DNA of 64,000 bases from an uncultured Gammaproteobacteria bacterium. GTDB taxonomy: Bacteria; Patescibacteriota; Microgenomatia; CAYQLK01. The stretch is from positions 131,494 to 195,493 of the forward strand of contig CAYOLO010000002.1 in assembly GCA_964404855.1 (NCBI GenBank). Direction: 5' to 3'. How positions within the stretch are numbered: the stretch's first letter is position 1; each line of letters starts with the position of its first letter. The translations under genes and the position numbers were made by a program. Below, one piece after another: positions 2,816 through 62,678 of the stretch. The notes below the pieces were generated by a model. It was not told where the DNA came from, did not search any database, and saw only the letters and a program-made list of their open reading frames with translations.

Positions 2816-2837
2816 ATTTAATTAATATCCTAGAGTA

Positions 2838-2872
2838 TTTTTATTTTGGTTAAAAATGATATAATTACGTTT
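2838..2872 (+). promoter_or_regulatory. sigma70-type promoter of rnpB (-10 TATAAT at 2862-2867)
   Basis: ttggTTAAAAatgaTATAATtacgtttG places +1 at the first base of the RNase P RNA P1 helix. Confidence 0.5.
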
Positions 2873-2874
2873 GT

Positions 2875-3209: not shown

Positions 3210-3216
3210 ATAAAAA

Positions 3217-4236
3217 TTAATCTTTCTTTGTTTTTGGAAGTCTACCGACAAAAAACTCGTTTGCAAATATTTTGATTGTGACCGCAACAGGTACCGCCAA
3301 CACTGCCCCCATTATTCCATAAAGCTTTGTTCCAATAATTAATGCCAGAATGGTTACTAGTGGATTAATACCGATTGCTCTTCTCATTACAGTCGGAACA
3401 ATTAAATTATTTTCTAGCTGTTGAATCACAAAATAGAGTGCAACAGTTGCAATTCCAATTATTGGTGAAACAGTAAATCCTGCAAGAATTGCCGGAATGG
3501 CTCCAACTATTGGACCGATTACTGGCACAATTTCTGATAACCCTGCGACAATTGCTAAAGGTAAGGCATAAGGCACACCAAGCAACGCCAAGCCGATATA
3601 GGTTATTACTCCAATAATTATTACTAGGGTTATTTGCCCTCTTACCCAAGCACCAAGCCCAAACTCTAAGTTCTTGATAAGTTTTTCAGCTCTTTTCTCG
3701 TTTTCGCCCGTAAAAAGCGATTTAACCATGTTCGTAATTTGTTCCCAATAAAGTAGTGAATAAAAAGTAATAACAAACATTGTCATGATTGAAAAAATAG
3801 AATTAAAAAATCCTGCAGTAATTGTCACAGCATTCGAACCAAAATTGCCAAGCTGCCCAGTAATTGAGCCGGATATCTGATCAGATGAAATATTATTAAT
3901 AATTAAAATATCGTTAACTTGGTTAATAAGACTCGGTAAATTTTCTATCAACAAAGAAGTCTGCTCAATAAGCGGAGGAATAATTACTCTGAAGATAAGA
4001 ATAATAAGACCAATTACTACTAAATAAATTATGCCAATCGAAAGCGGTCGGGGGATTTTGCGCTTAACTAAAAAATCGACTGGACTCCTTAATGTCGAAA
4101 CAAAGATAAAGGCGATAAAGATAAGAAATATTACATCTAATAATTTTAATAAAATCCAAGAAGTTGCCAAAGTTGCTAAGGTAAAAATAATTGTGCGATG
4201 TGAAATTTCTATTTTTTCAGGAAAGGTTTTCATCAT
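3217..4236 (-). CDS. AI-2E family transporter (PerM/YhhT-like, UPF0118)
   Basis: 8 TM helices with the characteristic C-terminal GLSEIVPVIGPIVGAIPA...VLAVP motifs. Confidence 0.85.
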   Translation of the reverse strand: MMKTFPEKIEISHRTIIFTLATLATSWILLKLLDVIFLIFIAFIFVSTLRSPVDFLVKRKIPRPLSIGIIYLVVIGLIILIFRVIIPPLIEQTSLLIENLPSLINQVNDILIINNISSDQISGSITGQLGNFGSNAVTITAGFFNSIFSIMTMFVITFYSLLYWEQITNMVKSLFTGENEKRAEKLIKNLEFGLGAWVRGQITLVIIIGVITYIGLALLGVPYALPLAIVAGLSEIVPVIGPIVGAIPAILAGFTVSPIIGIATVALYFVIQQLENNLIVPTVMRRAIGINPLVTILALIIGTKLYGIMGAVLAVPVAVTIKIFANEFFVGRLPKTKKD

Positions 4237-18761: not shown

Positions 18762-19400
18762 CTATGGCACTTCTGATATTGCCATGTACCTGTTTGAGAT
18801 CCCAGACTTGTACAGCGACTCGTTCGTTTCAAAGAAGACATCGACCTGAGTGAACTCGAGGTGACCTCTATCCTCACAAACTACGATGCCATAGCCAGAA
18901 ATCTCCAGTTTTTGGCCCAGTTGCCATTTGGCACCACAAGCTGCGGCACCGACGTAGACGGCCTGACCGGAAGACATGTTTCCGCAATATCCTCCGCCGT
19001 CCCAGATTGGGAAACCACTAACCTGATGGCAGTAGTAACCAGTAACTTTGCTCTGAACCTGTACACCACCAGTTGAGGCTGCAGAAACCGCCTGAGCTGT
19101 TTCTGGAGTTGGTGTTGCGATTCTTGGTTGAACCGTTGGTGCTACCGTAGGCTCAATGGTAGGCGTGTTCGTGACCTCGACAACCAGTGTTGGTGATGAG
19201 GTAGGCAAATCAGCCTGAGTTGCGATCTCGTACACTTGAGGCGTCTGAGATGAAATCTCCGCAGCTGCTTTGGGTAGCTGTTCGGACTGAGATGGAACGC
19301 AGCTGGTCATAAAAATTATGACTAGCAGCATGACTCCGACCGGCCGCCAAAGATCTTGCAGCTGGTTTTCTGCGTGCTTTTGCGTAAACGCTTGGCGCAC
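18762..19400 (-). CDS. 3D-domain (MltA/YuiC-like) cell-wall-active protein with N-terminal TM and Thr/Pro linker
   Basis: C-terminal YYCHQVSGFPIWDGGGYCGNMSSGQAVYVGAAACGAKWQLGQKLEISGYGIVVCEDRG matches the 3D domain. GTG start with AGGAGG RBS 6 nt upstream. About 52% GC. Confidence 0.65.
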   Translation of the reverse strand: MRQAFTQKHAENQLQDLWRPVGVMLLVIIFMTSCVPSQSEQLPKAAAEISSQTPQVYEIATQADLPTSSPTLVVEVTNTPTIEPTVAPTVQPRIATPTPETAQAVSAASTGGVQVQSKVTGYYCHQVSGFPIWDGGGYCGNMSSGQAVYVGAAACGAKWQLGQKLEISGYGIVVCEDRGHLEFTQVDVFFETNESLYKSGISNRYMAISEVP

Positions 19401-41051: not shown

Positions 41052-41543
41052 CTAGCCGACAGGTGCGGCGAGGATTTGGTTGGTGAATTCTACTGGAGAG
41101 ACCGCGCGGAACGCGACTCCTCCAGGGTACTTGAGCTCACCGCCGTCAGGTGCTACTCGCATCACGACCATCATCTCGTCTCGAGTGACGATGAACGAGG
41201 CGTGGGCGGCAAGATACTCCGAGCCTACCTCGAAGACCGTGTGTGTGCCGAGTCTGTCGAAGCTGGCGTGGTGCTCACGAAGATATACCATCGAGATGAC
41301 ACCTTCGGTGACGACGACGAACTTCTCGTCTTGGCCGAGTTGCCAGCGAGGGTTGTTGAGATCGTTTTGGATGTTTCGGAAGTCCGAAGAGCTAAGCGCT
41401 CCCCAGCCAATCCGACGGCCGTCAGTGTTGTACCAAACGGCATCAGCGACGACGACCTCGAATCCTGTCCTTTTTTGGCCGAGGACTAAGCCCCCAAAAG
41501 GAGCGCCGAAGTCGCTTTCCGGATCAATGTCCGGATCGATCAT
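41052..41543 (-). CDS. GC-rich hypothetical protein (163 aa), unit 4 of the rpsJ|tuf insertion
   Basis: About 58% GC ORF preceded by a family-type promoter. Its overlapping + strand ORF, 40941..41489, is judged an antisense artefact. Confidence 0.5.
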   Translation of the reverse strand: MIDPDIDPESDFGAPFGGLVLGQKRTGFEVVVADAVWYNTDGRRIGWGALSSSDFRNIQNDLNNPRWQLGQDEKFVVVTEGVISMVYLREHHASFDRLGTHTVFEVGSEYLAAHASFIVTRDEMMVVMRVAPDGGELKYPGGVAFRAVSPVEFTNQILAAPVG

Positions 41544-41640
41544 GCCAGGACTGAGCTTTACGGTAAGAATTGTCTTTCTCCATTTTTAGGGTGCGACTTT
41601 TACGACTGTGGTTTTGCAACCACAGGTCGAAAGTGCGATA

Positions 41641-41670
41641 TTTATATCATTTTTGAAGCTAAATGTCAAA
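41641..41670 (-). promoter_or_regulatory. family promoter copy A (minus strand: tagtaTTTGACA-17-TATAAA)
   Basis: -35 TTGACA (+ 41665-41670 as tgtcaa), 17-nt spacer tttagcttcaaaaatga, -10 at 41641-41646. Confidence 0.55.
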
Positions 41671-41703
41671 TACTAGAGGATACTTTTCTTTTTAAGAAAC
41701 GAG

Positions 41704-41846
41704 GTTTTTCAATTACTTTAATTAGCACATCAAAAATCCCCGCGTGATTTTTGATTCTCACTTTTTGTTCACTCTTTTGCTTGTGCAAAAACCATGCTCG
41801 TTCACAAAAAGAGGTCTAATTAAAGTAATTGAGGGATTAAATGACA
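41704..41846. repeat. conserved ~140-bp intergenic element, copy A
   Basis: About 85-90% identical to copies at 42571-42710 and 43974-44113. Contains hairpin caaaaatc-cccgcgt-gatttttg and stem ttttgc/gcaaaa at 41775-41790. Confidence 0.7.
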
Positions 41847-41854
41847 AAAAAAAA

Positions 41855-41880
41855 GAGCCCTCCTTTTTAGGGGAGGGCTT
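41855..41880 (-). terminator. family terminator hairpin GCCCTCC-TTTTTAGG-GGAGGGC plus T9 (minus-strand sense)
   Basis: 17 nt downstream of the stop of 41897..42415. Identical hairpins at 42745, 61966 and 62648. Confidence 0.7.
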
Positions 41881-41896
41881 GAGGAAAGGACGAGGA

Positions 41897-42415
41897 CTAC
41901 CACGTTGTGAGGGGTGTTCGCCCCGCAGACGCGGCTTGCTCGAATTGCTTTAACGCAAAGCTTTCGTCCGCTTCGGAATCGAAGAAGACTTTGAATTGCT
42001 GGGTTGGAACGTCGAAGTGAACAACCACAAGGCGCGCTTCGGTTTGGGTAAAGCCGCCAACGGCACCTTCGAGCGCATAGTCGACGACTGATCCCAGATT
42101 GAAGGACGCGTAAAGACAGATTGGCCGACTACCGTGTTTGTTAACGTAGTCGACGGCCGCGCCTAGAGCGTGTATATAAGCCTGCTCTGGCCTAAGGATG
42201 TTGATGTCCTCGTAGCGCATAAGTGGCGTACAGTTCTCGACGAGCGTCAGATCGCCGCGATTACTGAACAGCGTGAGATGACGCATACCTTGCGGCAAGA
42301 TGTCGAGGAGGCTGGGTGCTGGCTGGGTCGCATGTGATCCTGTCTTTTTAAGGAACAGAAAAACTGTCACAACAGCTACGACTACCAGACTGGTTACGAC
42401 AAGCGAGATGAACAA
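41897..42415 (-). CDS. GC-rich membrane-anchored hypothetical protein (172 aa), unit 3
   Basis: N-terminal TM (FISLVVTSLVVVAVVTVFLFL) followed by a soluble domain with no recognisable motif. About 56% GC. Confidence 0.55.
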   Translation of the reverse strand: MFISLVVTSLVVVAVVTVFLFLKKTGSHATQPAPSLLDILPQGMRHLTLFSNRGDLTLVENCTPLMRYEDINILRPEQAYIHALGAAVDYVNKHGSRPICLYASFNLGSVVDYALEGAVGGFTQTEARLVVVHFDVPTQQFKVFFDSEADESFALKQFEQAASAGRTPLTTW

Positions 42416-42483
42416 AGCTTATGGGGCTCCTTTTAGCTAAATGTGCTTCTGAGTGAGTTTTTACACTTACCCAATTGTTGTAA

Positions 42484-42511
42484 TTATATCATATTTTGAG
42501 CCTATAGTAAA
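42484..42511 (-). promoter_or_regulatory. family promoter copy C (diverged -35 TTTACT, 16-17 nt spacer, TATAAT)
   Basis: -10 at + 42484-42489 (attata), with spacer ...ctcaaaatatga similar to the other copies. Confidence 0.4.
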
Positions 42512-42570
42512 GAATCTGGTGAAATCTAATTTTAATATTACACAGTAGGGTTTTCTACTTTGTAGAAACA

Positions 42571-42710
42571 GTTTTTTCAATCCCCTTTCTTGGCACGTTC
42601 AAAATCCCTGCGAGATTTTTCTCTTTCACTTTTTGCTCGCTCTTTTGTCTTACAGACAAAAACCATGCCCACTACGCAAAAAGAGATCCAAGAATGAGAA
42701 TTGAGAGATA
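42571..42710. repeat. conserved ~140-bp intergenic element, copy C
   Basis: Same element. The covarying stem here is ttttgtct/agacaaaa (42643-42661). Confidence 0.7.
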
Positions 42711-42744
42711 TGAATTATGAAAATGAAGTCAAGCAAGAAGAAGC

Positions 42745-42772
42745 CCTCCTTTTTAGGGGAGGGCTATGGGCG
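42745..42772 (-). terminator. family terminator hairpin GCCCTCC-TTTTTAGG-GGAGGGC
   Basis: Downstream of the glpX stop (42798). Confidence 0.7.
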
Positions 42773-42797
42773 GATTGGTTTGTGAAGCGAACCGAGA

Positions 42798-43733
42798 CTA
42801 GTTGTCACGATCCCAATTGTGTTCGGTCTCGATCCGGCGAATAGTGCCGGTGAGGCCTCGCATCACGACTGAGTGACTGACCGTCACTCCGTGCGCCAGA
42901 GGCTGGATGCCTTGAAGCATGGTACCGTTGGTCACGCCTGTGGCCGCGAAATATGTATCCTGACTGGACACGAGATCGTCAAGGTTCATGACCCTGTTGG
43001 GGTCAATCCCCTTTTCGAGAATGGCACGCCGTTCTTCATCGCGAGAGATGAATGGCCGGCACTGCATGTCGCCGCGGAGAGCGATGATACCGCAGGCAGC
43101 CGTGACAGCCTCAGGCGACCCACCGCTGCCAAGCAGCATGTGAGCACCTGTGCCTGGCATGCAGGCAACCAGAGCGCCGGCAATGTCGCCGTCGCCAATG
43201 AGGTTGATGCGTGCACCCGCTGCCCGAACAGCTTTGATGATTTCGTTGTTGCGATCCCTTTTGAGGATGGTGACAACGACGCTGTTGACGGGAATGTCGA
43301 GAGCCTTGGCAACCTGCTCGATGTTCCAAGCGACCGGAGCGGTGATGTCGATTTTGCCCTTGGCTTCCTTGCCCACGACAATCTTGTCGAGGTAAAAGAA
43401 GTCACGGACGTCGATCATGGTCCCGCCTGGTGCGGCGGCGATAACAGCGATGGAACCTTCTCGCCCTTCGGAGAGAATGGTCGTCCCGTCGACTGGGTCG
43501 ACAGCAACATCCATCTTGGGTCCATTGCCGTTGCCGACCACTTGGCCGTTGAACAGCATCGGAGCTTCGTCTTTTTCGCCTTCGCCGATTCTGACGATAC
43601 CGTCCATGTCGACCGTGGCAAGCATGGCGTTCATGGCGTCGACGGCGGCTTGGTCGGCACCAATCTTGTCACCAAGACCGAACCAACGGACGGCACCGAG
43701 AGCGGCAGCTTCGGAAACCCGAATGAGCTCCAT
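42798..43733 (-). CDS. glpX: class II fructose-1,6-bisphosphatase (GlpX-type FBPase/SBPase)
   Basis: MELIRVSEAAALGAVRWFGLGDK...DGIVRIGEGEKDEAPML...VDPVDGTT...IGDGDIAGAL...LLGSGGSPEAV is colinear with GlpX. The ORF-track start at 43916 lies upstream of this unit's own promoter, so the start was set to the conserved MELIRV Met. About 58% GC. Confidence 0.8.
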   Translation of the reverse strand: MELIRVSEAAALGAVRWFGLGDKIGADQAAVDAMNAMLATVDMDGIVRIGEGEKDEAPMLFNGQVVGNGNGPKMDVAVDPVDGTTILSEGREGSIAVIAAAPGGTMIDVRDFFYLDKIVVGKEAKGKIDITAPVAWNIEQVAKALDIPVNSVVVTILKRDRNNEIIKAVRAAGARINLIGDGDIAGALVACMPGTGAHMLLGSGGSPEAVTAACGIIALRGDMQCRPFISRDEERRAILEKGIDPNRVMNLDDLVSSQDTYFAATGVTNGTMLQGIQPLAHGVTVSHSVVMRGLTGTIRRIETEHNWDRDN

Positions 43734-43887
43734 CCCGATATTGCGATCGGGCGTGGGAGTGTAGTTCCTGACCTTGAGTGGTCCGGAAGGGATGACGAGG
43801 GTTTGTGCCGATGTAATGGGTTTGGTTCTCCTTCTCCAAATAAATGAGCTGTAACGGACGTCCGTAACGGTTGTCCAAAACGGCGAA

Positions 43888-43916
43888 ATCTTACCACTTT
43901 TGAAGCTGTATGTCAA
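43888..43916 (-). promoter_or_regulatory. family promoter copy B (tagtaTTTGACA-17-TAAGAT)
   Basis: -35 at + 43911-43916 (tgtcaa), spacer tacagcttcaaaagtgg, -10 at 43888-43893. Confidence 0.5.
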
Positions 43917-43973
43917 ATACTACGGGCCTAAATAATAGTTATTTTGGAAAATATTAGTTTTTAATTACAAATT

Positions 43974-44113
43974 GTTTTCAATCCACTTTCTTGGCACACC
44001 AAAAATCCCAGCGTGATTTTTGTTTTTCACTTTTTGTTTGTTCTTTTGCTTGTTAAGCAAAAACCATGCCCACTCACAAAAAGAGATCCAAGAAAGTAAA
44101 TTGAGGGATAGTG
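43974..44113. repeat. conserved ~140-bp intergenic element, copy B
   Basis: Same element. The covarying stem here is tttgctt/aagcaaa (44044-44062). Confidence 0.7.
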
Positions 44114-44151
44114 AAAAAACAGATAGGAAGTTTGGAGTATTAAAGACAAGA

Positions 44152-44180
44152 AAAAGCCCTCGGGGTGAGCCGAGGGCTGG
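44152..44180 (-). terminator. family terminator variant GCCCTCGG-GGTGAGC-CGAGGGC plus T-run
   Basis: Immediately downstream of the stop at 44204. Same outer stem as the main family. Confidence 0.6.
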
Positions 44181-44203
44181 GGGGTGAACTTGGGAGGTGT
44201 TGG

Positions 44204-44716
44204 CTAGGCCAACGCGAGACTGGCGCGACGCATCAGCGAGACGACGTCGCCGCCTTGGGGCATGCCTTCTTCGAAGCGCTCGATGGCGTCGCAGTAGGGT
44301 TTGTCGGCGAGATACTCGTCGGTATGGATCCGCATCAAAAACGGAACGATTTCCGTGATGGCGGAGCTGTTGCCGTGGACTACTTCGCCTCCCCGCTTGT
44401 GGCGGAAGAAGAACGAATAACCAATGGTCAGCTCGGTTTCGAGCAGCCACTCGTCGGTCTCGAGGTCGGAAACGTGGAGCCTGCCGGTCTTGACGGACTC
44501 ATTACGGTTAATGAGCACGCCGTTCTCGGTCAGGAGATACATGTTGCCGCTTCGGCTGGTAAGCAGAACGGCGTTGAACTTGTCCCCACCGAGGAGCATT
44601 GCACCTTCACTGAACATGTCGCTCAGCCTGAAGACCCTGTCCGAATTGGCTCGGTCGATCCGATGGGCAAGGTGGTTACCCTTAACCTGGACCAGAATTG
44701 CTTCGGCGCTAGCCAA
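44204..44716 (-). CDS. GC-rich hypothetical protein (170 aa), unit 1
   Basis: TTG start with AGAGG RBS. No recognisable motif. The overlapping + strand ORF 44165..44746 is judged an antisense artefact. Confidence 0.5.
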   Translation of the reverse strand: MASAEAILVQVKGNHLAHRIDRANSDRVFRLSDMFSEGAMLLGGDKFNAVLLTSRSGNMYLLTENGVLINRNESVKTGRLHVSDLETDEWLLETELTIGYSFFFRHKRGGEVVHGNSSAITEIVPFLMRIHTDEYLADKPYCDAIERFEEGMPQGGDVVSLMRRASLALA

Positions 44717-44958: not shown

Positions 44959-46140
44959 TTAGGCAATTACCTTTGTGATGACTCCAGCACCTACGGTGTG
45001 GCCACCTTCGCGGATAGCAAAACGTAGACCTTCTTCCATAGCGACAGGTACGATGAGTTTGATTGTCATCTTGACTGTGTCACCAGGCATAACCATTTCG
45101 GTTCCTTCTGGAAGTTTAGCTTCACCAGTTACGTCAGTTGTACGGACGTAGAACTGTGGGCGGTATCCAGAGAAGAATGGAGTGTGGCGTCCACCTTCTT
45201 CTTTGGTGAGGATATAAACCTCAGCTTCGAATTCGGTGTGAGGGGTGGAAGTTCCTGGTTTAGTAAGAACTTGTCCACGCTCGACGTCGTCTTTTTCAAC
45301 TCCACGAAGTAGAACTCCAACGTTGTCTCCAGCTTGACCTTCGTCTAGCTGTTTGTTGAACATTTCGACTCCTGTGACGGTAGATTTCTTGATCGGGTTG
45401 ATACCAACGATTTCGATTTCTTCACCGACTTTGACAACTCCTCTTTCGATACGTCCTGTAACAACAGTTCCACGACCTTTAATCGAGAAAACGTCTTCGA
45501 CAGGCATCAAAAATGGCTTGTCAGTGTCGCGTTCAGGTGTTGGAACGAATTCGTCAACAGCTTTAAGCAATTCTTCGATACTCTTAACCCCTTCAGCGTC
45601 TCCTTCGAGAGCTTTGAGTGCAGAACCGCGAATAATCGGGGTTGTGTCTCCAGGGTATTGATACTTGGTCAAAAGTTCACGAATTTCCATCTCGACTAGA
45701 TCAAGAAGTTCTGGATCTTGAACCATATCAACCTTGTTCATAAAAACAACGATTGAAGGTACACCAACTTGACGTGCTAGCAAAATATGCTCGCGAGTCT
45801 GTGGCATTGGACCATCTGGAGCGGAAACAACAAGAATAGCACCGTCCATTTGAGCGGCACCGGTAATCATGTTCTTGATGTAGTCAGCGTGACCAGGGGC
45901 ATCAATGTGTGCGTAGTGTCTAGCTTCTGTCTCGTACTCAACGTGAGCGATAGAAATAGTAATACCACGCTGTCTTTCTTCAGGTGCCTTGTCGATTTGA
46001 TCGAAGGCTTTGAAGTTTGCCATTCCTTTGTCGGATTGGACTTTTGTAATAGCAGCAGTTGTAGTTGTTTTACCGTGGTCGACGTGACCGATGGTACCAA
46101 CGTTAACGTGCGGCTTGGTTCTTTCGAATTTGTCAGCCAT
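44959..46140 (-). CDS. tuf: elongation factor Tu
   Basis: [25 protein letters not shown]-motifs. 393 aa. Confidence 0.95.
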
Positions 46141-46270
46141 TTTTGGTTTTTCTCCTTAAATTAAACTTATATAAATAAGCCAAAAAAGCTCCTTTGCAAT
46201 TGAAGCTTTTTTTGGGCTTGTGTATTATTCAAATTACTACACGGTTTGTCAATATATAAAGTCTCTATGG

Positions 46271-47077
46271 CTAGTTGGCTAAACATTTGCCGGCGGAGTA
46301 GATTCGGGAGAAAATATTGTTCGATATCAAAAAATGATCCAATTTTGCCATAAGCAGGTTTTGCTTAGCCTCGTCTTGAGATTTGCAGCTTAGAATAAAT
46401 TGTTCAACAAAATAAACAATCGTGAGCAGTTTGGTGAGATTGGAATTAATGAATACCCCATTTTGGGTTAGTTTTTGAACAATCAGATCAAAATCCAGTG
46501 AAAAACCATCCGCAAAAAGTAGTGAATTACAAAACTCATATTCGAGAGGTCCAAATTGGAAGTGTTCAAAATCAATTATTTTAACCCCTGAATCGGTAAT
46601 GATCAGGTTGCCAATATGTAGATCTCGGTGCAGTGGTTGTGAAGGGAAATTGTCCCAGTCTACTCTGTTTATATAATCGATAATTTGGGTTATTTTCCCC
46701 GTTCGATCAGACCCGAGTTTTTGCCGTAAGACACGGATATTTGACTGAAATTGGCTCTTATTTGCTTGCAGATAATTGATCCATTCTGTGTTACCGGATA
46801 ATTGAGTCTTGTTGAGCTTAGTAATAATATCTGAAAGCTGGTCGCATATTAGCGGTTTGTTTATCTGGTCATTACTCTTTAGTTTGTCAAAAATCGTCAA
46901 ACGACCCAGACGAAAAACAATTTTCGGCGCACTACCCGGACTATTGAAATAGAAAGTATTGATTCCTAATTCCTCTCTTCTGGCTAGTTCGGCGGATGTG
47001 TAGAACTTGAGAATGAATTTGTCCATTACATCAATCACGTTGTGTACTCCCCTTCCGGTTTGGATTAATTTGATCAT
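46271..47077 (-). CDS. APH/ChoK-fold phosphotransferase (aminoglycoside-phosphotransferase-like kinase family)
   Basis: Brenner motif HRDLHIGNLII and IDFE(H) metal-binding motif. 268 aa. Confidence 0.65.
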   Translation of the reverse strand: MIKLIQTGRGVHNVIDVMDKFILKFYTSAELARREELGINTFYFNSPGSAPKIVFRLGRLTIFDKLKSNDQINKPLICDQLSDIITKLNKTQLSGNTEWINYLQANKSQFQSNIRVLRQKLGSDRTGKITQIIDYINRVDWDNFPSQPLHRDLHIGNLIITDSGVKIIDFEHFQFGPLEYEFCNSLLFADGFSLDFDLIVQKLTQNGVFINSNLTKLLTIVYFVEQFILSCKSQDEAKQNLLMAKLDHFLISNNIFSRIYSAGKCLAN

Positions 47078-47084
47078 TGATGTG

Positions 47085-47804
47085 TTAAATTTTTAAGTCG
47101 AAGAGTACACTTGGGAATTTTGGATTGAGTGTAAAAGCTTCGGCATATTCATTCTCTTTGCTGCGCCTAAGATGATAACCGCGGACACACGAAAGTGACT
47201 TCTCGAATACAGTTGATTTTGAATCAGCCTGAGACTCGTAAATACCGAATAGCTGCATCTTCTGATCAATATAATCAGTGATATCGACCAAAACCTGCGG
47301 CACTATCGGCAACATACCTTCACCATACAGAACGATAGGTGTGCGGTGAGGATCACCTAGTTCTGGTTTGACTCCGGTAGCGGACCAAAAGGAAGCCTCT
47401 TCGACGACATGAGCCGCTTCTCGGTGGTCAGAGTGGTAGTCAAGCGGATTCATAGTAAAAATCACTTCCGGCCTAACTTGTCTAATTATTTTGACTACTT
47501 TGAACATTAGTTTTTTGGAAAACTGAAGATTGAGGTCTTCTTCGGCAAGTAGGAATTTTTGTTTTAGACCCAAAAATTCAGTCGCTTTGTCAAATTCTCC
47601 CTCGCGCAAGTTAATAACCGTATTTTTCGCACTCTTTGATCCGTTTCGTCTATCTCTGCCCTCTTGAGAGTTAGTCAGCAGTATTTCGTAGGCATTGAAT
47701 CCTTGATTTTGGAGCTTGAATACACTGCCGGCACAGGTAATGTGATCGTCGGCGTGAGCTGAAACGATAAGTATATTTTTGGTACTAATGGGTTTTTTGG
47801 ACAT
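47085..47804 (-). CDS. PIG-L/LmbE-family N-acetylglucosaminyl deacetylase
   Basis: ILIVSAHADDHITCAGS zinc-binding motif, plus HSDHREA. Confidence 0.75.
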   Translation of the reverse strand: MSKKPISTKNILIVSAHADDHITCAGSVFKLQNQGFNAYEILLTNSQEGRDRRNGSKSAKNTVINLREGEFDKATEFLGLKQKFLLAEEDLNLQFSKKLMFKVVKIIRQVRPEVIFTMNPLDYHSDHREAAHVVEEASFWSATGVKPELGDPHRTPIVLYGEGMLPIVPQVLVDITDYIDQKMQLFGIYESQADSKSTVFEKSLSCVRGYHLRRSKENEYAEAFTLNPKFPSVLFDLKI

Positions 47805-47815
47805 GTTCCTCCTTT

Positions 47816-49822
47816 TTATTTGGTAATAATTTGACTTGTAATTAGCTGGCGCTTGCTGCCGCCACCACTGGATGCTTCCAGTGAAGTGGTTACCCGATAC
47901 GCCGAGTGAGACTGTCCTTGGAAATAGTAGACGTATGGCTCTACCTCAACCACAGCCTTCTGTTTGCCGCCTTGAAAATCTGCATCCCTAAGCTCAAAAG
48001 CATTCTTAACGATACTGATCAGCTCTGGGTGGGCTAAATAAAAACCAATATCCAAACCATCACCGGTGGATGCAACTGAACCGCCAGGAACTACCCTGAC
48101 AACGGGCGAGACAAGAGCTTTGGTATTGGTACCAACGGATAACGGCGCAACGTAGTTACTGCCTAGTGAAGTGTTTTTGTGTGCAACAACTATTGGAGTG
48201 TCGAAGTGGTGTTCGAGCTGCTGAAGAAGAAGTGCCCAGCCATTACCGCCGAGTGTCAGCCCTTGTTCTTTGAGATCAGCTAGGAGTATATCCCCTTCAA
48301 GATCGAAGTGATTAATGTCTGGCTCGGACTCTTCGATAGGCCTAATTAGCTTGCGTGTCGCAATGTCCCACGGCCCGTTACCAAAAACTCCCCGTGCAAA
48401 ACCACTTTTTGCGCTGTCATCGAAATATGTTTCTGCAAGTCTCTGATGGAACTGATCATAGTGATTTTTACTGGCTTCAGTTACTAAGGCACCAAAATCG
48501 GTAATATCTGAAAGCTTAGCTTGGGTTGCAGCAAAAAGTTCGCTACTTGGCGTGTGAAAGATACCCAGTCTCTGGCATAGTTGTTTATTGAGGGCGTCGT
48601 AAAGCTGGGCGAATGTTGATGGGTTTGATTTTGAAAGGGTTTTGAGTTTGATTAAATAATCAGAAAAATCGGCTGAGTCAAACATTCGGTCTAATTCATC
48701 TAGATCGATATCTGAATTACTGTCCAAATTTTGAAGTTTGGCTTTGGTGTCAGGCAACTGTTCAGGTGGCATAAGACCAGTCGAAACCAGCGAAGGTATT
48801 AATACTCGTTCCAAGTATGACTTCACGGAGTGAGAATCGGGGTCGGTATCATAAAACGATACCCTTGTTGAGACTGTTCCATCCGGGTTTTTAAAGCTGG
48901 CAGCGACAGACAACATAATCGCTTCTACCGGGTTGGCAAAATCAGTTGTGCCGTAGTTGAAAACCGAGTGTTCGTCTAATTGCGATTTTTCGGCTAGAGT
49001 TAAGACAATAGGATCACCTTCTCGGTGTCCCAGAGCGGTCGCGACTCCAAGCACTGAGGACGGCAAAACATTATCGGGAATGCCGAAAATCGAGGCAATT
49101 TTGGGTTTTGGGACAGAATTTGCCTGTGCAGAATTAACTTTGACCGTTTTGGGTAATGGTGGGTGGAATTTGTCGTTGACGATTTTTGTGCGCTCCAGGT
49201 CATCGACCTGGTCTGCCATTGTTTGTAATATCTCAATGGCTTGTTTTGGATCCATGCCAGTAATCCGCTGATTGAAAAAACGAGTATCGAATATATCCTC
49301 GCCGAAAAATTCGGCAAACATTACCCAAACCCCGCTAACTACTAATCGATTGTGAATTAAGTCGAGCGTTTGGTTGAACTGCGCGGTTTGAGATCGATCA
49401 ACAAATATTTGGGGGTTAAGTGAGATAGACTCAGATAAGTGAATTGCCGTCTTGGGTAATATCTGCTCATTGAGCACAACCTTATCAGGATGCTCTAGCC
49501 GCGCAATGGTTACCTGAACAAGGTGATCAAAATTCTTAACCATTTTGCGTAATTCCTGAACTCTTAGCTGATCTGAGGTTGAAACATCAACCTGATTAGC
49601 TTTGGCAAGGCCAGCAATTCTGGATAGTTCAGTCCCAGGAATGAAGTTGACCGTGAATTTGGCTTGATTTGGTTTTGGGTGCTTACTTGCTTCAAGGCTT
49701 ACAAAATGTGAAGCCGAGTTAAAAACCTGTGTAAGCTCAATCGGCGGGAGTTCTGAAATATCTTTTAGCGGGTTAGCAAGTTCAGGACTGGTATTTGGTA
49801 TGGTTGGTCTTTCTTTAGTCAT
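47816..49822 (-). CDS. large hypothetical protein (668 aa), no recognisable domain
   Basis: Long uninterrupted ORF at ~47% GC with no TM and no signature motifs. Confidence 0.55.
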   Translation of the reverse strand: MTKERPTIPNTSPELANPLKDISELPPIELTQVFNSASHFVSLEASKHPKPNQAKFTVNFIPGTELSRIAGLAKANQVDVSTSDQLRVQELRKMVKNFDHLVQVTIARLEHPDKVVLNEQILPKTAIHLSESISLNPQIFVDRSQTAQFNQTLDLIHNRLVVSGVWVMFAEFFGEDIFDTRFFNQRITGMDPKQAIEILQTMADQVDDLERTKIVNDKFHPPLPKTVKVNSAQANSVPKPKIASIFGIPDNVLPSSVLGVATALGHREGDPIVLTLAEKSQLDEHSVFNYGTTDFANPVEAIMLSVAASFKNPDGTVSTRVSFYDTDPDSHSVKSYLERVLIPSLVSTGLMPPEQLPDTKAKLQNLDSNSDIDLDELDRMFDSADFSDYLIKLKTLSKSNPSTFAQLYDALNKQLCQRLGIFHTPSSELFAATQAKLSDITDFGALVTEASKNHYDQFHQRLAETYFDDSAKSGFARGVFGNGPWDIATRKLIRPIEESEPDINHFDLEGDILLADLKEQGLTLGGNGWALLLQQLEHHFDTPIVVAHKNTSLGSNYVAPLSVGTNTKALVSPVVRVVPGGSVASTGDGLDIGFYLAHPELISIVKNAFELRDADFQGGKQKAVVEVEPYVYYFQGQSHSAYRVTTSLEASSGGGSKRQLITSQIITK

Positions 49823-49844
49823 ATTTTGGCTATAAAAAAACCTC

Positions 49845-49915
49845 CCGGTGTGGGAGGTTGTTTGGCTTTTATTTAAAGCTGTGGCTCTTTAGATAAGAGA
49901 CCTCCCACATGAAGA
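49845..49915 (-). promoter_or_regulatory. terminator/antiterminator-like leader upstream of the 668-aa gene
   Basis: Minus-strand 5'-tgtgggagg...(40 nt)...cctcccacacc-gggagg-ttttttt. The central cctcccaca can pair either with upstream tgtgggagg or with downstream gggagg, which is the terminator followed by T7. Confidence 0.4.
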
Positions 49916-50033
49916 AATGCGCAAAAAGCGCATCCAGGTCTGGTGGAGATAAATACAGTTAGAATTCAAATTTTGTACAGATAGAATATCCATAGTTGAA
50001 GTAGATAATACGATTGGGATAATGATTTGTCAA

Positions 50034-50354
50034 TTAATTACTAAAGTCTGTTTGAGTGTCTTGACCATCTTGAATTAATTCCTGATATTTTTCTTGATTT
50101 TTCATTCTGGCCTCTTCAGCTCTTTCCAGCTGTGCCTGGGGATTAACAGAAACGAAAATGGCGGCGGCAAATATCAAAAACCAAATCAGAACAAAAAAGG
50201 CAAAAATTCCGGTAACGAGGAATTTGACCCATTTGGGCCAAGCGGTCCAAATCCACATCAGTACAAAACCTGCAGGAAAGGCAAAAACCAATAACAAAAC
50301 TGTTACAAGTGTTTTGGTGTCACTGGACATTCCTTCAGACTTAGTGTTTACCAT
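50034..50354 (-). CDS. small two-TM membrane protein, hypothetical
   Basis: TVLLLVFAFPAGFVLMWIW and FLVTGIFAFFVLIWFLIFAAAIFV, with a Gln/Glu-rich C-terminus. Confidence 0.45.
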   Translation of the reverse strand: MVNTKSEGMSSDTKTLVTVLLLVFAFPAGFVLMWIWTAWPKWVKFLVTGIFAFFVLIWFLIFAAAIFVSVNPQAQLERAEEARMKNQEKYQELIQDGQDTQTDFSN

Positions 50355-50396
50355 ATGTTTTCATTGTGACTATTTTGGATGATTTTTGCAAAAAAA

Positions 50397-50420
50397 GCCC
50401 CCGGGGGTTAGCCGAGGGCG
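50397..50420 (-). terminator. family terminator variant GCCCCCGG-GGGTTAG-CCGAGGGC
   Basis: Downstream of the stop at 50448. Same arm sequence as the variant at 44152. Confidence 0.5.
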
Positions 50421-50447
50421 AATAAAGGGTGGTGGCAAAAGCTGTGG

Positions 50448-50993
50448 CTAGTTGCCCAGCCAGCTGCCGTGTGTGCCGATGATCTGCGTACCGTCGCGGA
50501 ACACGACCATGTCGTGGCTCGCACTAAAAATCCGCTTGCGCTGATCCTTGACTTCCAGCTTGAGGACCCAGCCGTTGAAGGACTGGGCCTGGACGTAGAC
50601 TCGGACCTGGCCGATCGGATTGGTCCTGATGTACTTCAGCCGATTGTTGATGATCTTGGTCGCGTCGAAGTTGACGACTTGGGCGCTGGCCAGGGTCATT
50701 TTTTCGAGGCTTGCAAGAAGAGTCTCCTCTGCAACGTTGGCATTGTCTACCTTAGCCATCTCCTCGCGGAATTTGGCAATGGCAAGCTCAAGCGGTTGGT
50801 CTTGGAGGTCAATGGCGAGGGTGGAGAAGATCGTCAGGACGACTGTCCTGTCTGCGTACGCGGCTTCAACAAGCCGAGTCAGCGTCCTCACACCGTGAGT
50901 ACGTCCGACGACCTCAAACATATACGGAAGCTGAAGTCCGTATGGAATGAGATCTTCGACCGAAGGGTATATTGTCCTTTTTTTGCGGGGCAA
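50448..50993 (-). CDS. GC-rich hypothetical protein (181 aa) directly downstream of fusA
   Basis: About 57% GC. TTG start with AGGAAG RBS. No recognisable motif. The + strand ORFs 50469..51029 and 50620..50898 are antisense artefacts. Confidence 0.5.
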   Translation of the reverse strand: MPRKKRTIYPSVEDLIPYGLQLPYMFEVVGRTHGVRTLTRLVEAAYADRTVVLTIFSTLAIDLQDQPLELAIAKFREEMAKVDNANVAEETLLASLEKMTLASAQVVNFDATKIINNRLKYIRTNPIGQVRVYVQAQSFNGWVLKLEVKDQRKRIFSASHDMVVFRDGTQIIGTHGSWLGN

Positions 50994-51028
50994 ACTTCAC
51001 TTCCTTTTTCAGGTGCGATTTACAGCTA

Positions 51029-51057
51029 ATTATAACCTATAATAATGTAAATTGCAA
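51029..51057 (-). promoter_or_regulatory. sigma70-type promoter for the 50448..50993 unit (TTGCAA-17-TATAAT)
   Basis: + strand attata at 51029-51034 and ttgcaa at 51052-51057. Sits between the fusA stop and the GC-rich ORF. Confidence 0.45.
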
Positions 51058-51072
51058 TTATGTAGGAGGAGG

Positions 51073-53193
51073 TTAAACTGACTGACCTTTGGATTTGGCG
51101 ACGATGGTGGCAGCGATATTGCTAGGCACGACATCATAATGACTGGGAAGAAGAACTGATGTCCCGCGACCCTGAGTCATCGAACGAAGATTGGTTGTGT
51201 AGCCAAACATCTCTGATAATGGAACGAGTGCTCGAATAATTGTGGCATTACCGCGGCTTTCGGAACCTTGGATCTGTGCTCTTTTGCTGGAAAGATCGCC
51301 CATAATGTCACCCATAAATTCGTCAGGGACGGTGACTTCGACGTTCATAATAGGCTCAAGCAGAACCATATCTGCATGTTTGGCCGCGTCTTCGATAGCC
51401 ATACTGCCCGCAATTTTGAAAGCCATTTCGGACGAGTCGACATCATGGAAAGAGCCGTCATAAACAGTGACCTTCATGTCAACCACGGGGTAGCCGGCTA
51501 AAATACCTGAGGCCATTTTTTCGGTAACACCTTTGTTGATTGGAGTAATAAATTCCTGAGGAATTGCCCCGCCTTTGATTTCACTTGCCCAAATATAACC
51601 TTCTCCGCGACCAAGCGGTTCGACACGCAACAGACAGTGACCATATTGACCACGACCTCCAGATTGACGAATATATTTACCCTCTCCGTTTGCCTGCTTG
51701 GTGATTGTTTCTCTGTAGGCAACCTGGGGTTGACCAACATTAGCCTCGACTTTGAATTCGCGCTTCATACGATCAGCAAGAATCTCAAGGTGAAGTTCTC
51801 CCATTCCGGAAATGATGGTCTGTCCGGTCTCGTGATCGGTTTTGATCCTGAATGTCGGGTCCTCTTCGGAGAGTTTGGAGAGAGCCAGACCCATTTTTTC
51901 CTGATCGGCTTTGGTTTTTGGCTCGATCGCTAAATCGATAACCGGCTCTGGGAAGGTAATACTTTCAAGGACGATGGGCTTGGTTTCTTCAGCAAGAGTG
52001 TCTCCGGTAATTGTCTTTTGCAAACCAATAACGGCAACGATTTCTCCAGCAAAGGCTTCTTTGATCTCTTCGCGCTTGTCAGCATGCATTAACAGTAATC
52101 GTCCGGCACGCTCTTTTTCTCCTTTGGTTGTGTTGGTGATATACGAGCCAGAAGATAATGTGCCGGAATAGACACGGACAAAAGTTAATTTACCAACGTG
52201 GGGATCGACTTGGATTTTGAATGCAAGACCACAGAATGGTTCTTCGGGGGTATTCTTACGAACTTCTGGTTCGCCTGTTTTGGGATTAGTTCCGTGTGTT
52301 TCGCCAACATCCTGAGGAGAAGGAAGGAATTGTACAACTGCATCAAGCAAGGGTTGGACGCCTTTGTTGCGCAAACTGGAACCGGCAAGTACCGGAACAA
52401 TCTGATAATTGATAACGGCTTTTCTGAGTGCGGTATAAAGCTCATCGAGCGTGGGCTCCTGACCATTAAGGAATTTTTCGATCAGGTTATCGTCGGTTTC
52501 GGAGATCTTCTCGATTAAAATCGCGCGATATTTTTCGACTTCAGCTTTGTGTTCTTCGGTTACGTCCGAAAGAGTGTATTTAGCACCTGTTTCGTCAGTT
52601 TCCCAAATATATTCTTTGCGTGTAAGCAGGTCGATAACACCCTTAAAGTCGTTTTCGGAACCGATAGGAATATTATATGCTACTGCCGGAGCAGCAAGCC
52701 GATCCTTGATCGATTGAAGAGTTGCGTGAAAGTCTGCACCAAGTTTGTCCATTTTGTTAACAAAACAAACTCTAGGAACTTTGTATTTGTCTGCTTGACG
52801 CCAAACGGTTTCTGATTGTGACTGAACACCTTCTTCGGCATCCAGAACTGTAACACCGCCGTCCAAAACACGCAGGGCGCGCTCAACCTCGGCAGTGAAA
52901 TCGACATGACCCGGAGTGTCGATAATATTGATTCGGTGTTCAATTCCTTCAAAAAGATTGCCTGTGGGTGTCCAAAATGTAGTCGTCGCAGCTGAGGTGA
53001 TGGTGATGCCACGCTCCTTTTCCTGCTCCATCCAGTCCATTGTGGCTGCACCTTCGTGAACTTCACCAATTTTGTAACTTTTGCCTGTGTAATAGAGAAT
53101 TCTTTCTGAAGTTGTAGTTTTGCCTGCGTCGATATGGGCAATGATTCCGATGTTTCTAATTCTGTCGAGTGGGTAGGAACGTGTGTCAGCCAT
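51073..53193 (-). CDS. fusA: elongation factor G
   Basis: [21 protein letters not shown]. 706 aa. Confidence 0.95.
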
Positions 53194-53199: not shown

Positions 53200-53679
53200 T
53201 TACCACCTAAAGTGTGCGAAGGCTTTGTTAGCTTCGGCCATTCTAATCGTGTCTTCTCGTTTCTTAATCGCTGCACCAATATTGTTACTGGCATCGATAA
53301 GCTCAGCGACTAATTTGTCTTTCATAGTGTGGTATTCACGCGATGGACGGTCATGGGCTGCTTTGATGATCCAGCGGATAGCCAGAGCCTCTTTGCGGTC
53401 ACCGCGAACTTCGACCGGAACCTGATAGTTGGCACCACCGACACGACGGGGACGAACTTCAACGCGCGGAGCGACATTATTAATAGCGGTTTCAAAAACA
53501 TCCAAAGCGTCTTTTTTGGTTTTGGCAGCAATTTCGTCAAAGGCGGAATAAACGATTTTTTGTGCGATTGTTTTTTTACCGGATTCCATTACACGGTTAA
53601 TAAAACGGGTAACAACCAGTGAATTGTAGATCGGGTCCGGTTCAATTGTTCGTTTAGCAATAGCTTTGTTTCTTGACAT
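53200..53679 (-). CDS. rpsG: 30S ribosomal protein S7
   Basis: Position between rpsL and fusA, plus [28 protein letters not shown]. Confidence 0.9.
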
Positions 53680-53688: not shown

Positions 53689-54135
53689 TTAGATTCCTTT
53701 AGCAGCAGCCTCTGCGGCGCTGGTAGCTCCGCCTTTTTTGGTTCCATATAGAGAGCGAGCTTTTTTGCGATTAACAACACCGGTAGCGTCGAGTTTGCCG
53801 CGAATGATGTGATATTTGACACCTGGCAAGTCTTTAACACGACCCCCGCGTACCATAACGACTGAGTGCTCAGCCAGCTGGTGACCAATACCCGGAATAT
53901 AAGCCGTAACTTCTTGCTTGTTACTCAATCTGACACGGGCAACCTTGCGAAGTGCTGAGTTAGGTTTTTTCGGGGTCATTGTTTTGACCACGGTACAGAC
54001 ACCTCTCTTTTGCGGAGCCGTGCCGGTTGTCGGACGGTTAATGAGCGAGTTAAAACTCTTACGCAAAACCGTGGCTTTGATTTTTTTTGGCTTGGATTTA
54101 CGTCCGTGCCTGATAAGTTGCTGTACTGTTGGCAT
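53689..54135 (-). CDS. rpsL: 30S ribosomal protein S12 (C-terminally extended)
   Basis: [13 protein letters not shown]...[16 protein letters not shown]. Confidence 0.9.
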
Positions 54136-61965: not shown

Positions 61966-61993
61966 AAAAAACCCTCCTTTTTAGGGGAGGGCT
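61966..61993 (-). terminator. family terminator hairpin (A)CCCTCC-TTTTTAGG-GGAGGG(T) plus T-run
   Basis: 18 nt downstream of the stop at 62011. Confidence 0.65.
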
Positions 61994-62010: not shown

Positions 62011-62475
62011 CTACAGAGGGAGCGCCACCTTGCGTTCCCGCCGGTGTCGGACTCGGGTAAGAGCCGCGGCGATACCGTTGCGGATCGCCTGGAGCGGGGC
62101 GCGATGGCCGACCAGCTGCATCTTATCGTCGATGGTTTCCATGACCAGCTCGGCCTGCTCGGGGTCGAGCATGAAGCCGTTTTTGGGGTACCGCGGTTTG
62201 GGGGTAAAAACTCCCGGACCGCCGTACTCGAGCAGCTGAACTTCGACTCCGGCAGCTTCGTAGCCGTCGAGGGCGCCGACGTAGAGGTCGAGCGGTCCAT
62301 CGCAGTGCAATGCGATAACCTGGTCTCCTGTCATGGCAACCGCGTCCTCGAATGCGCGACGGTAAGCCTCCTCGTACGCTTGCTCCAGGTGGGTATCAGA
62401 CCGCCTGGCAAAGAGGTATCTGTCGACATTGTCGGGACTGAACGTCCGACTATGTACGTCGGGCAGAGGCGGCAT
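62011..62475 (-). CDS. GC-rich hypothetical protein (154 aa)
   Basis: About 62% GC. The ORF-track start (62634) lies upstream of this unit's own promoter (62532-62560), so the start was moved to the first ATG downstream of the TSS (MPPLPDV). No recognisable motif. Confidence 0.5.
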   Translation of the reverse strand: MPPLPDVHSRTFSPDNVDRYLFARRSDTHLEQAYEEAYRRAFEDAVAMTGDQVIALHCDGPLDLYVGALDGYEAAGVEVQLLEYGGPGVFTPKPRYPKNGFMLDPEQAELVMETIDDKMQLVGHRAPLQAIRNGIAAALTRVRHRRERKVALPL

Positions 62476-62531
62476 CACACAGATGATTCTCAAGTTTCTG
62501 TTTGAACTCCTTTTGGTAATGAACTGAGGCG

Positions 62532-62560
62532 AATTATACTTGTTTTTAGATAAAAAATCA
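62532..62560 (-). promoter_or_regulatory. family promoter copy D (ctagtaTTTGATT-17-TATAAT)
   Basis: + strand attata at 62532-62537 and aatcaa at 62555-62560. Confidence 0.5.
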
Positions 62561-62647
62561 AATACTAGAGGATAGTCTGACACATATTTAATTATTTTTT
62601 GAAAGGGATTTGTAGACTCTAGCTTTTTTGCCAAACCAGCAAAATAA

Positions 62648-62678
62648 AAGCCCTCCTTTTTAGGGGAGGGCTAGGGCG
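62648..62678 (-). terminator. family terminator hairpin GCCCTCC-TTTTTAGG-GGAGGGC
   Basis: 13 nt downstream of the stop of the 56-aa ORF. Confidence 0.65.

Follow-up and report, generated by a model that had tools for sequence, protein, structure and literature searches.

The attenuators that precede the trp, his and pyrBI operons, and the antibiotic-responsive leaders of bmrB-bmrCD and vmlR, have in common a short upstream open reading frame (uORF), mutually exclusive antiterminator and terminator structures, and a terminator placed before the first gene. Bacillithiol and mycothiol synthesis both use a PIG-L deacetylase (BshB or MshB) to free an amine, which is then acylated anew by a partner enzyme, BshC or MshC respectively (PMC5790435). 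Small sets of unrelated genes, among them tusDCB, bfd-bfr and nrdHEF, have been inserted into the rpoBC-str-S10 cluster and subsequently inherited by whole clades (PMC8046335; PMC6735719). All three bodies of work bear on a stretch of 64,000 nucleotides, here called the window (GCA_964404855.1, CAYOLO010000002.1, positions 131,494-195,493, forward strand), in which the translation-factor genes fusA and tuf are separated by 4932 nt (46141-51072). The gap holds exactly five open reading frames (ORFs), all on the minus strand, which from fusA towards tuf are orf181, tm106, orf668 (hereafter X), a PIG-L/LmbE-family deacetylase and an APH/ChoK-fold kinase; the last three form an operon, called the trio below, whose leader shows each of the features that the known attenuators share. 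The sequence-only reading of this DNA had named the five genes and their fold classes, and the ORF, Pfam and motif evidence bears it out. With moderate confidence, we regard the interval as a set of old, fixed modules, the core of which is a portable, attenuator-controlled operon whose enzymes would deacetylate and then re-acylate an amino sugar. Relatives' contigs used for comparison carry the labels L001 to L097.

The leader, on the minus strand like the genes around it, measures 211 nt from promoter to orf668 start and folds with a z of -4.16 against shuffled sequence. It opens with a promoter, TTGACA-17-TATTAT (50033-50005), that scores 11 of 12 matches in the scan, overlaps the tm106 stop codon and is conserved in relatives. 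About 4 nt past the predicted transcription start begins the uORF, MDILSVQNLNSNCIYLHQTWMRFLRISSCGRSLI (49993-49889), of 34 codons plus a stop; the other parts of the leader are a hairpin with GUGGGAGGU in its 3' half, two small hairpins and the terminator. Complementarity between GUGGGAGGU and the terminator's 5' arm gives the leader the classic set of four segments. Segment 1, the anti-antiterminator (49948-49928), lies inside the uORF and makes up the 5' half of the leader hairpin in the minimum-free-energy fold. Segment 2, the antiterminator AUGUGGGAGGUC (49910-49899), occupies uORF codons 28-32 and can pair with the terminator 5' arm. Segments 3 and 4 are the terminator itself, AACCUCCC-ACACC-GGGAGGUU followed by U7 (49859-49832; 49859-49839 in the terminator scan), which ends 10 nt before the orf668 ATG. 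An attenuator-like leader had been proposed in front of orf668 from the sequence alone, and the promoter, uORF and terminator are indeed found in these 211 nt; the architecture expected of an attenuator is present, with an intrinsic terminator ahead of the first gene and a competing partner for its 5' arm.

Both the architecture of the leader and the complementarity of its segments are conserved. Within the window's clade the terminator is invariant and the leader DNA is 90-92% identical, as against 76-80% for the 3' end of fusA, 52-66% for orf668 and 57% for the kinase gene, and a 3-nt indel in the relatives' uORF keeps the frame. The same layout stands upstream of the trio in five distant lineages (L086, L089, L090, L091 and L093), the proteins of which are only 25-37% identical to those of the window: a promoter, a uORF of 17-44 codons that is often nearly leaderless, a GGGAGG-type segment at or just past the uORF end, some 40 nt of spacer, and a CCUCCC/GGGAGG terminator and U-run ahead of the first gene. 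All six lineages possess a uORF, which ends on segment 2 or a few codons after it in four of them and just before it in L089 and L091. The duplex of segments 2 and 3 in the window reaches -18.9 kcal/mol (RNAduplex), a value that none of 500 shuffles equalled. In every one of the six lineages no upstream sequence pairs better with the terminator arm than segment 2 (-14 to -20 kcal/mol, values that 0-2 of 500 shuffles attain), and the pairing extends into flanks peculiar to the lineage, such as CUAAG/CUUAG in L093 and UGUAGGU/ACUUACA in L091. Further, the motif pattern of the leader occurs 14 times in the 3.2 Mb examined, and 13 of these occurrences lie directly upstream of trio operons.

Conservation of this kind might also be expected of a ligand-binding riboswitch or a small RNA gene in which the uORF is incidental. 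The 90-92% nucleotide identity within the clade includes third codon positions, which is more than a peptide of 34 residues requires, and only about 5 of the 13 variable sites in the uORF are synonymous. This explanation is nevertheless improbable, as no Rfam family matches the leader (nothing at gathering scores, and only chance-level matches at E below 1), the distant lineages keep only the uORF and three complementary segments with no common aptamer-like sequence, and the uORF itself is retained in six lineages of six, its frame preserved by the 3-nt indel within the clade.

How a ribosome on the uORF might influence the choice between the two structures was followed in folds of the transcript up to the terminator loop, with a ribosome footprint of 28 nt stepped along the uORF codons. 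In five of the six lineages the terminator arm of these truncated transcripts stays paired with the antiterminator except when the ribosome occupies the last 8-10 codons; L091 gives mixed results. The leader is best read as a candidate ribosome-dependent transcription attenuator, in which the uORF would run through segments 1 and 2, and segment 1 and the terminator's 5' arm would compete for pairing with segment 2. A ribosome that keeps pace and reaches the last 8-10 codons would cover segment 2, allowing the terminator to form and turning the operon off; lagging or stalled translation of the uORF would instead leave segment 2 free to capture the terminator arm, and RNA polymerase would read on into the enzyme genes. 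This switch logic, like the signal that would be sensed, is our inference.

Several observations weigh against this model. When the full leader is folded to equilibrium with a masked ribosome, four of the six lineages still favour the terminator; since a switch thus appears in only two of the six, the model relies on co-transcriptional kinetics. No tandem or enriched codon for a single amino acid is shared by the six uORFs, as regulatory codons would be; the one residue that all of them share is a Trp close to the CUCC element. Beyond the clade of the window the peptides are mostly hydrophobic. Finally, the near-invariance of the leader within the clade means that covariation comes only from comparing a few distant lineages, for which alignment was done visually and through duplex search.

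The operon behind this leader begins with orf668 (47816-49822), which matches nothing in Pfam or NCBIfam and had accordingly been described as an orphan. That description no longer holds, for X is the signature gene of a rare conserved trio, equipped with its own attenuator, that is found elsewhere in other lineages. The family is small. A HMMER search of 1.84 billion representatives recovered ten clusters, all with E below 1e-51 and none with a Pfam domain; word-based homologue searches gave six proteins only, and two further alignment searches returned the same six. An exact look-up of orf668 found nothing on record, and a metagenome scan with the family alignment added three contigs, all of the same clade. 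When 14 members were searched against Pfam at E up to 10, only scattered noise emerged, and a profile search of the PDB gave nothing useful. What the members have in common is the C-terminal 430 residues, and the conserved motifs are YGTTDFANPxE, LGGNGW, AHKxTxxGxNY and GDGLDIG. In the window the protein consists of a helical N-terminal domain (about residues 30-217), a disordered linker and a conserved, enzyme-like C-terminal domain (239-668). A view of orf668 as hypervariable was entertained and dropped: an identity of 57%, set against about 93% for RpoB, falls within the range of rates usual for accessory enzymes, and the C-terminal domain is well conserved.

In every lineage with readable context X is accompanied by a PIG-L deacetylase and a homologous APH-like kinase, and this at unrelated loci. 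The order is HAD, X, PIG-L, GT2, kinase in L086, where the cluster lies between aspS and relA; HAD, X, PIG-L, kinase in L090; X, PIG-L, kinase in L089; X, PIG-L, kinase and then an EF-G-like gene in L091 and L092; and PIG-L, kinase, X, NUDIX in L093. Only in the window's clade does the trio stand between fusA and tuf. The gene after the trio in L091 (12243-12536) and L092 (10079-10372) is 72% identical to EF-G over its first 91 residues, the contig ending there, and by its sequence this appears to be a second, independent adjacency of trio and fusA.

The two partner enzymes can be placed more closely. The deacetylase (47085-47804, minus strand, 239 amino acids) matches PF02585 at E 1.9e-20 and 74.1 bits against a cut-off of 28.2, and its translation contains the metal-site motifs AHADDH and HSDH. 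It does not reach any equivalog, scoring 97.4 against a cut-off of 182.5 for TIGR04001 (BshB1) and lower still for BshB2, MshB and Mca, and its nearest solved structures are 2ixd (LmbE-related), the diacetylchitobiose deacetylases (Dac) and BshB1, all of which act on N-acetylglucosaminyl compounds. The kinase (46271-47077, minus strand, 268 amino acids) belongs to PF01636, at 34.3 bits against a cut-off of 23.2, with the catalytic motifs HRDLHIGN and IDFE in place; among substrate-specific equivalogs it has only sub-threshold matches, to thiamine, methylthioribose and AmgK kinases.

For X itself the evidence is structural. AlphaFold (AF2) models built from a 14-sequence alignment are confident, the window's X having a predicted local distance difference test (pLDDT) of 84 and a predicted template-modelling score (pTM) of 0.81, and the minimal member of the family, P0006, a pLDDT of 87 and a pTM of 0.88. 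In Foldseek searches of the PDB the window's X has as its top match BshC of Bacillus subtilis (4wbd; E 6.5e-3, probability 0.97), followed by CysRS, ArgRS, MetRS and GltX; P0006 matches cyclodipeptide synthases (AlbC, E 1.7e-2, probability 0.85), PanC (pantothenate synthetase) and GltX. BshC, the class I aminoacyl-tRNA synthetases (aaRSs), the cyclodipeptide synthases, PanC and GltX are all class-I aaRS-like Rossmann enzymes that activate or transfer acyl or aminoacyl groups. Structure prediction, which the earlier reading had suggested for the 668-residue protein, has therefore supplied confident models and class-I aaRS-like matches, although the matches are weak; membership of X in the class-I aaRS-like superfamily is a model-based lead and not an assignment.

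Taken with the precedent of BshB and BshC and of MshB and MshC, which is the basis for the chemistry proposed here, these assignments suggest that PIG-L removes an acetyl group from an N-acetylglucosamine-containing compound, that X re-acylates the freed amine, probably with an amino acid, and that the kinase phosphorylates the substrate or the product. The kinase, together with the HAD, GT2 and NUDIX proteins of other lineages, is compatible with a sugar-phosphate or nucleotide-sugar pathway. Some of the evidence runs counter to this proposal. The fold matches of X have E values of about 1e-2 and template-modelling (TM) scores of 0.19-0.35, and BshC is the top match for only one of the two models, that of P0006 not reproducing it. 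No sequence-level link joins X to any family, there being no Pfam, NCBIfam or PDB-sequence match for the 14 members; in these same 14 a regular-expression search found no HIGH-like motif and no conserved KMSKS-like motif. Nor is a kinase part of the Bsh pathway, and the cluster of the window's clade has neither a glycosyltransferase nor a phosphatase.

The same three folds, placed behind a leader of this kind, could alternatively make up an inducible resistance or detoxification operon directed against a ribosome-targeting amino-sugar antibiotic, in which ribosomes stalled on the uORF by the drug would induce the kinase, deacetylase and ligase that modify it. APH is the fold of aminoglycoside and macrolide phosphotransferases, the relatives of PIG-L include deacetylases of aminoglycoside pathways and the conjugate amidases Mca and Bca (PMC5790435), and read-through upon lagging translation is the logic of antibiotic-responsive leaders. 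Further, the trio adjoins translation-factor genes in two lineages, the window's clade and L091. We nonetheless think resistance a rather unlikely function: the kinase does not specifically resemble any resistance kinase so far characterised, the recurring partners (HAD phosphatase, GT2 glycosyltransferase, NUDIX) look biosynthetic, and the uORF peptides, which vary in sequence between lineages, contain no known arrest motif on inspection by eye. A more speculative proposal, and one to which we give little credence, would join leader and enzymes into a single system responsive to the status of translation. X would then represent a new kind of class-I-aaRS-like enzyme, drawing its acyl group from aminoacyl-tRNA in the manner of cyclodipeptide synthases and aminoacylating a deacetylated amino sugar; the uORF would report the pacing of ribosome and RNA polymerase, and the recurrence of the trio beside fusA and tuf would stem from a functional link with the elongation machinery. 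If true, an X that uses aminoacyl-tRNA could hint at the source of activated cysteine in the BshC reaction, which has never been reconstituted.

The setting of the operon raises the question of its age. On the minus strand of the window rpoB, rpoC, rpsL, rpsG, fusA, tuf, rpsJ and rplC follow one another in that order, so that the rpsL-rpsG-fusA-tuf order of the str operon and its single strand are kept. Of its genes, rpsL lies at 53689-54135, rpsG at 53200-53679, fusA at 51073-53193 and tuf at 44959-46140, all on the minus strand; fusA (706 amino acids, with the full EF-G set of Pfam domains) marks the upstream edge of the insert and tuf (393 amino acids, with the EF-Tu domains) the downstream edge. 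The last two genes are not adjacent and would not be co-transcribed, five genes, a strong terminator and a separate tuf promoter intervening. By a genome-collection scan with EF-G, the nearest relatives are Patescibacteria, the nearest named one being Candidatus Daviesbacteria at 69% EF-G identity. Public assemblies L001, L002, L003, L006, L007 and others have Patescibacteria-type EF-G and gene order under the titles 'uncultured Gammaproteobacteria' or 'Pseudomonadales', which look like placeholder or wrong taxonomy labels.

The order fusA-orf181-tm106-orf668-PIG-L-kinase-tuf is common to every clade contig that covers the region, eleven in all (L001, L081-L085, L087, L088 and L095-L097). The junction of trio and tuf is found independently in L001, L082, L085, L088 and L097, and the succession of fusA, orf181, tm106 and trio in L001, L081, L083-L085, L088, L095 and L096. 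Across the clade the core genes are about 81% identical in DNA, RpoB and RpoC 92-94% identical in protein, and the fusA product 95-100% identical in amino acids. Where kinship is more remote (EF-G 63-71% identical), the two genes are neighbours, at a distance of 67-170 nt in L003, L007 and L008, among others. The sequence-only reading had seen here a break in the str operon by insertion, to be given up in favour of an ancestral arrangement should relatives share the gene order. The synteny comparison leaves part of each standing: relative to the deeper Patescibacteria this is an insertion, but since all close relatives share the order, the arrangement is ancestral and fixed in the clade and no recent break. 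Judged from these alignments, the stretch is an old, fixed insertion relative to the ground state of the phylum, within a clade of about genus level. The same reading is thus confirmed in what it observed and only partly supported in how it interpreted it.

It is accordingly very unlikely that the str operon of this genome was broken by the recent arrival of a genomic island or mobile element. Such an arrival would account for orf181, compositionally foreign with a GC content at third codon positions (GC3) of 0.71, and there are signs of traffic at the site in the three extra genes after fusA in L087 and the IS200-type transposase in the fusA-tuf gap of L005. Yet the kinase, PIG-L and orf668 genes share the host GC3 of 0.41, the high GC3 of orf181 is kept in every orthologue, no relative of orf181 turns up in viral contigs, and the order is shared by the 11 contigs although their core genes diverge by about 19% in DNA. 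The insert proteins include no integrase or transposase, and no PHROG match among them names mobility or a core phage function, the only PHROG matches being a PIG-L-like family of unknown function and, marginally for tm106, a phage membrane-protein family. No tRNA lies within or near the insert, meaningful flanking repeats were not found, and no insert protein matches a PADLOC defence-protein model; presence is not patchy, the insert occurring in all clade contigs. A 28-nt direct repeat, 75% identical (46265-46292 and 50442-50469), covers the stop codons of the kinase gene and orf181, with one copy on either side of tm106, the leader and the trio, which is where a recombination scar would be expected; it is probably due to chance.

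Nor is a broken fusA-tuf pair unusual in the phylum, for other lineages hold varied cargo at the same site. Pilin-like genes lie between fusA and tuf in L011 and L017, and in L005 the cargo amounts to 9.3 kb, coding for a histidine kinase, an IS200-type transposase, an SPFH protein and a subtilase. In all, the fusA-tuf and rpsG-fusA gaps of other Patescibacteria were seen to hold unrelated cargo at L005 7599-16912 and 1661-5509, L006 4884-7982, L011 2598-6168 and L017 12067-13854; type-IV-pilin-like proteins are among its products, the histidine kinase is of the PAS type, and the subtilase has Ig domains. Within the clade itself, L087 has three extra genes between fusA and orf181 (1014-4216): a 75-residue ORF, a 459-residue protein with weak methyltransferase matches and a 540-residue membrane protein. 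On this sequence evidence the junction after fusA appears still to take in genes.

One further feature of the alignments concerns the assembly. From rpoB to about 46101 the window is 100% identical in DNA to L081 and L082, and from tuf through glpX it is 97-99% identical to L001, with L081 and L082 dropping to 84-95%. The switch of nearest relative at 46100-46200 reflects either recombination at the perfectly conserved 5' region of tuf or an assembly chimera. Taken at its most extreme, the latter would make the linkage of the insert to both translation-factor genes an artefact of a contig joined at the conserved tuf, the change from L081/L082-identical to L001-like sequence at about 46101 being what such a join would leave behind. 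We consider this exceedingly unlikely, given that both junctions are found independently in other clade contigs and that chimerism would alter only the haplotype attached on the tuf side; because independent contigs confirm the insert on both sides, its existence is unaffected by the switch.

What had been described as one single insert resolves into three separately signalled modules of differing composition and histories, which would have been fixed long ago in the fusA-tuf spacer of one genus-level clade: orf181 with its promoter and terminator, tm106, and the portable leader with the operon of X, PIG-L and kinase. The first begins in the 79-nt spacer after fusA, where the promoter scan places a sigma-70-type promoter, TTGCAA-17-TATAAT (51057-51029), and ends in an intrinsic terminator (50419-50390, hairpin 50419-50397) with an 8-bp stem, seven of its pairs G-C, followed by T7; both are on the minus strand. 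Between them orf181 (50448-50993, minus strand) starts with TTG and has a GC content of 0.55 and a GC3 of 0.71, as against 0.37-0.41 for the other four insert genes, the same as core genes, and about 0.41 for the neighbours. The proposal of an autonomous, GC-rich orf181 unit is well founded in these respects, as is the statement that no obvious terminator follows the fusA stop codon: a scan of the 79-nt spacer found no terminator-like site and no stable fold (z -0.36 against shuffled sequence). Read-through from fusA into orf181 is therefore to be expected, and the orf181 terminator would be the effective end of str-operon transcripts; it probably also halts read-through from rpsL-rpsG-fusA, and tuf would then be served by its own promoter.

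Differences between orf181 and its L084 orthologue number 30, 20 and 66 at codon positions 1, 2 and 3, and because the changes fall mostly in third positions, orf181 is on sequence grounds judged a genuine coding gene. Its orthologues are 64-76% identical, with a GC3 of 0.62-0.71 in all and a conserved TTG start. No match was found in Pfam, NCBIfam, PHROG or PADLOC, and the searches made detected no relatives outside the clade and none in the viral-contig scan. It shares its high GC3 and hairpin-type terminator with the orphans of the tuf-rpsJ gap and with two other islands of the window. GC3-rich genes (0.60-0.76 as against about 0.41) lie at 41052-44716, 50448-50993, 18762-19400 and 62011-62634, all within or adjoining the ribosomal and RNA-polymerase operon cluster, and comprise four orphans, the GlpX fructose-bisphosphatase and two further ORFs; orf181 and the four genes of the tuf-rpsJ gap each have their own promoter and terminator. 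A suspicion that the GC-rich orphans orf181, orf170, orf172 and orf163 might be paralogues was rejected, as they are not related.

The orf181 terminator had also been called a variant of a hairpin family repeated in the window, and rightly so. The 24-nt hairpin AGCCCTCC-TTTTTAGG-GGAGGGCT, of the AGCCCTC...GAGGGCT family, is present in four near-identical copies (41856-41879, 42742-42765, 61970-61993 and 62649-62672) and two variants (44155-44178 and 50397-50419, the latter being that of orf181), and shuffled sequence yields about one match. That the shared terminators might be part of a larger repeat was likewise rejected, the likeness being confined to the 24-nt hairpin.

The second module, tm106 (50034-50354, minus strand), encodes by its ORF and translation a small membrane protein with two hydrophobic helices that is 71-86% identical in relatives. 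L085 has a tandem second tm106-like small membrane gene between tm106 and the leader promoter (about 7860-8100). A weak promoter-like site, TTGCAA-17-CACAAT (50363-50391), below the scan threshold and read by eye, ends 8 nt before the tm106 ATG, and for this reason translation of tm106 may begin almost at the 5' end of its mRNA, as with the leader-family uORFs. Beyond the trio, on the minus strand, tuf has its own promoter, TTGACA-17-AATAAT (46252-46224), with 11 of 12 matches in the scan. Between it and the tuf ribosome-binding site lies a long, A/U-rich hairpin of 43 nt followed by UUAUUUAU (46219-46177, fold z -3.47), which may be an operon-end terminator, a structure of the tuf 5' untranslated region, or both. 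The segment 46101-46200, with hairpin, ribosome-binding site and first tuf codons, is 100% identical in all relatives compared, including those in which the tuf coding sequence diverges by 5-15%.

As far as Rfam, Pfam, NCBIfam and literature searches show, the X-PIG-L-kinase operon and the attenuator in its leader appear to be undescribed. The break between fusA and tuf is itself an ordinary and documented type of event, old, fixed and lineage-specific, and common at this site in the phylum; as a repeated landing site, the spacer is relevant to the erosion of the most conserved operon cluster of bacteria. The ultra-small bacteria of the Candidate Phyla Radiation (CPR), to which the Patescibacteria belong, have tiny genomes and few recognisable regulators, and this conserved candidate leader-peptide attenuator offers in them a concrete and easily tested case of a regulatory RNA. 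X, in turn, represents a rare unannotated enzyme family with good models, always alongside an amino-sugar deacetylase and a small-molecule kinase. The trio may point to an uncharacterised glucosamine-conjugate pathway, possibly for a low-molecular-weight thiol or a cell-envelope precursor, and such a pathway would sit in organisms thought to be without most biosynthesis.

Set beside the known attenuators with which it shares its basic parts, the leader differs in having no run of regulatory codons and a uORF that is nearly leaderless. Its antiterminator lies within the last uORF codons in four of the six lineages and just past the stop codon in two, and all of its paired segments are built of Shine-Dalgarno-like GGGAGG and anti-Shine-Dalgarno-like CCUCCC. 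It matches no Rfam family and is so far known only before this CPR operon.

The trio resembles bacillithiol and mycothiol synthesis in pairing a PIG-L/LmbE deacetylase with an enzyme whose predicted fold is class-I aaRS-like. Among structures the window's X matches BshC best, BshB1 is the best NCBIfam model for the deacetylase, and the L086 cluster also contains a glycosyltransferase and a phosphatase, reminiscent of the MshA and MshA2 steps. It departs from both pathways in that X lacks sequence similarity to BshC or MshC and the P0006 model gave no BshC match, that the L086 glycosyltransferase is of family GT2 and not GT4, that the deacetylase stays below the BshB cut-offs, and that the APH-fold kinase, always part of the trio, has no counterpart in either pathway. 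The cyclodipeptide synthases (AlbC, YvmC, Rv2275), which are the best structural matches for P0006, are like X, on its predicted fold, in having a class-I aaRS-like Rossmann fold without HIGH and KMSKS; the match is a weak one (E 1.7e-2, TM 0.19/0.35), X has twice their size and motifs of its own, and no sequence similarity links the two. Finally, the insertions described by Brandis (2021) and Brandis et al. (2019) are, like that of the window's clade, small sets of unrelated genes inserted and then inherited by a clade. Those published cases lie mostly between operons, nrdHEF within the rpoBC operon being the exception, whereas the modules described here stand inside the str operon, between fusA and tuf, at a site that has been used repeatedly across the phylum.

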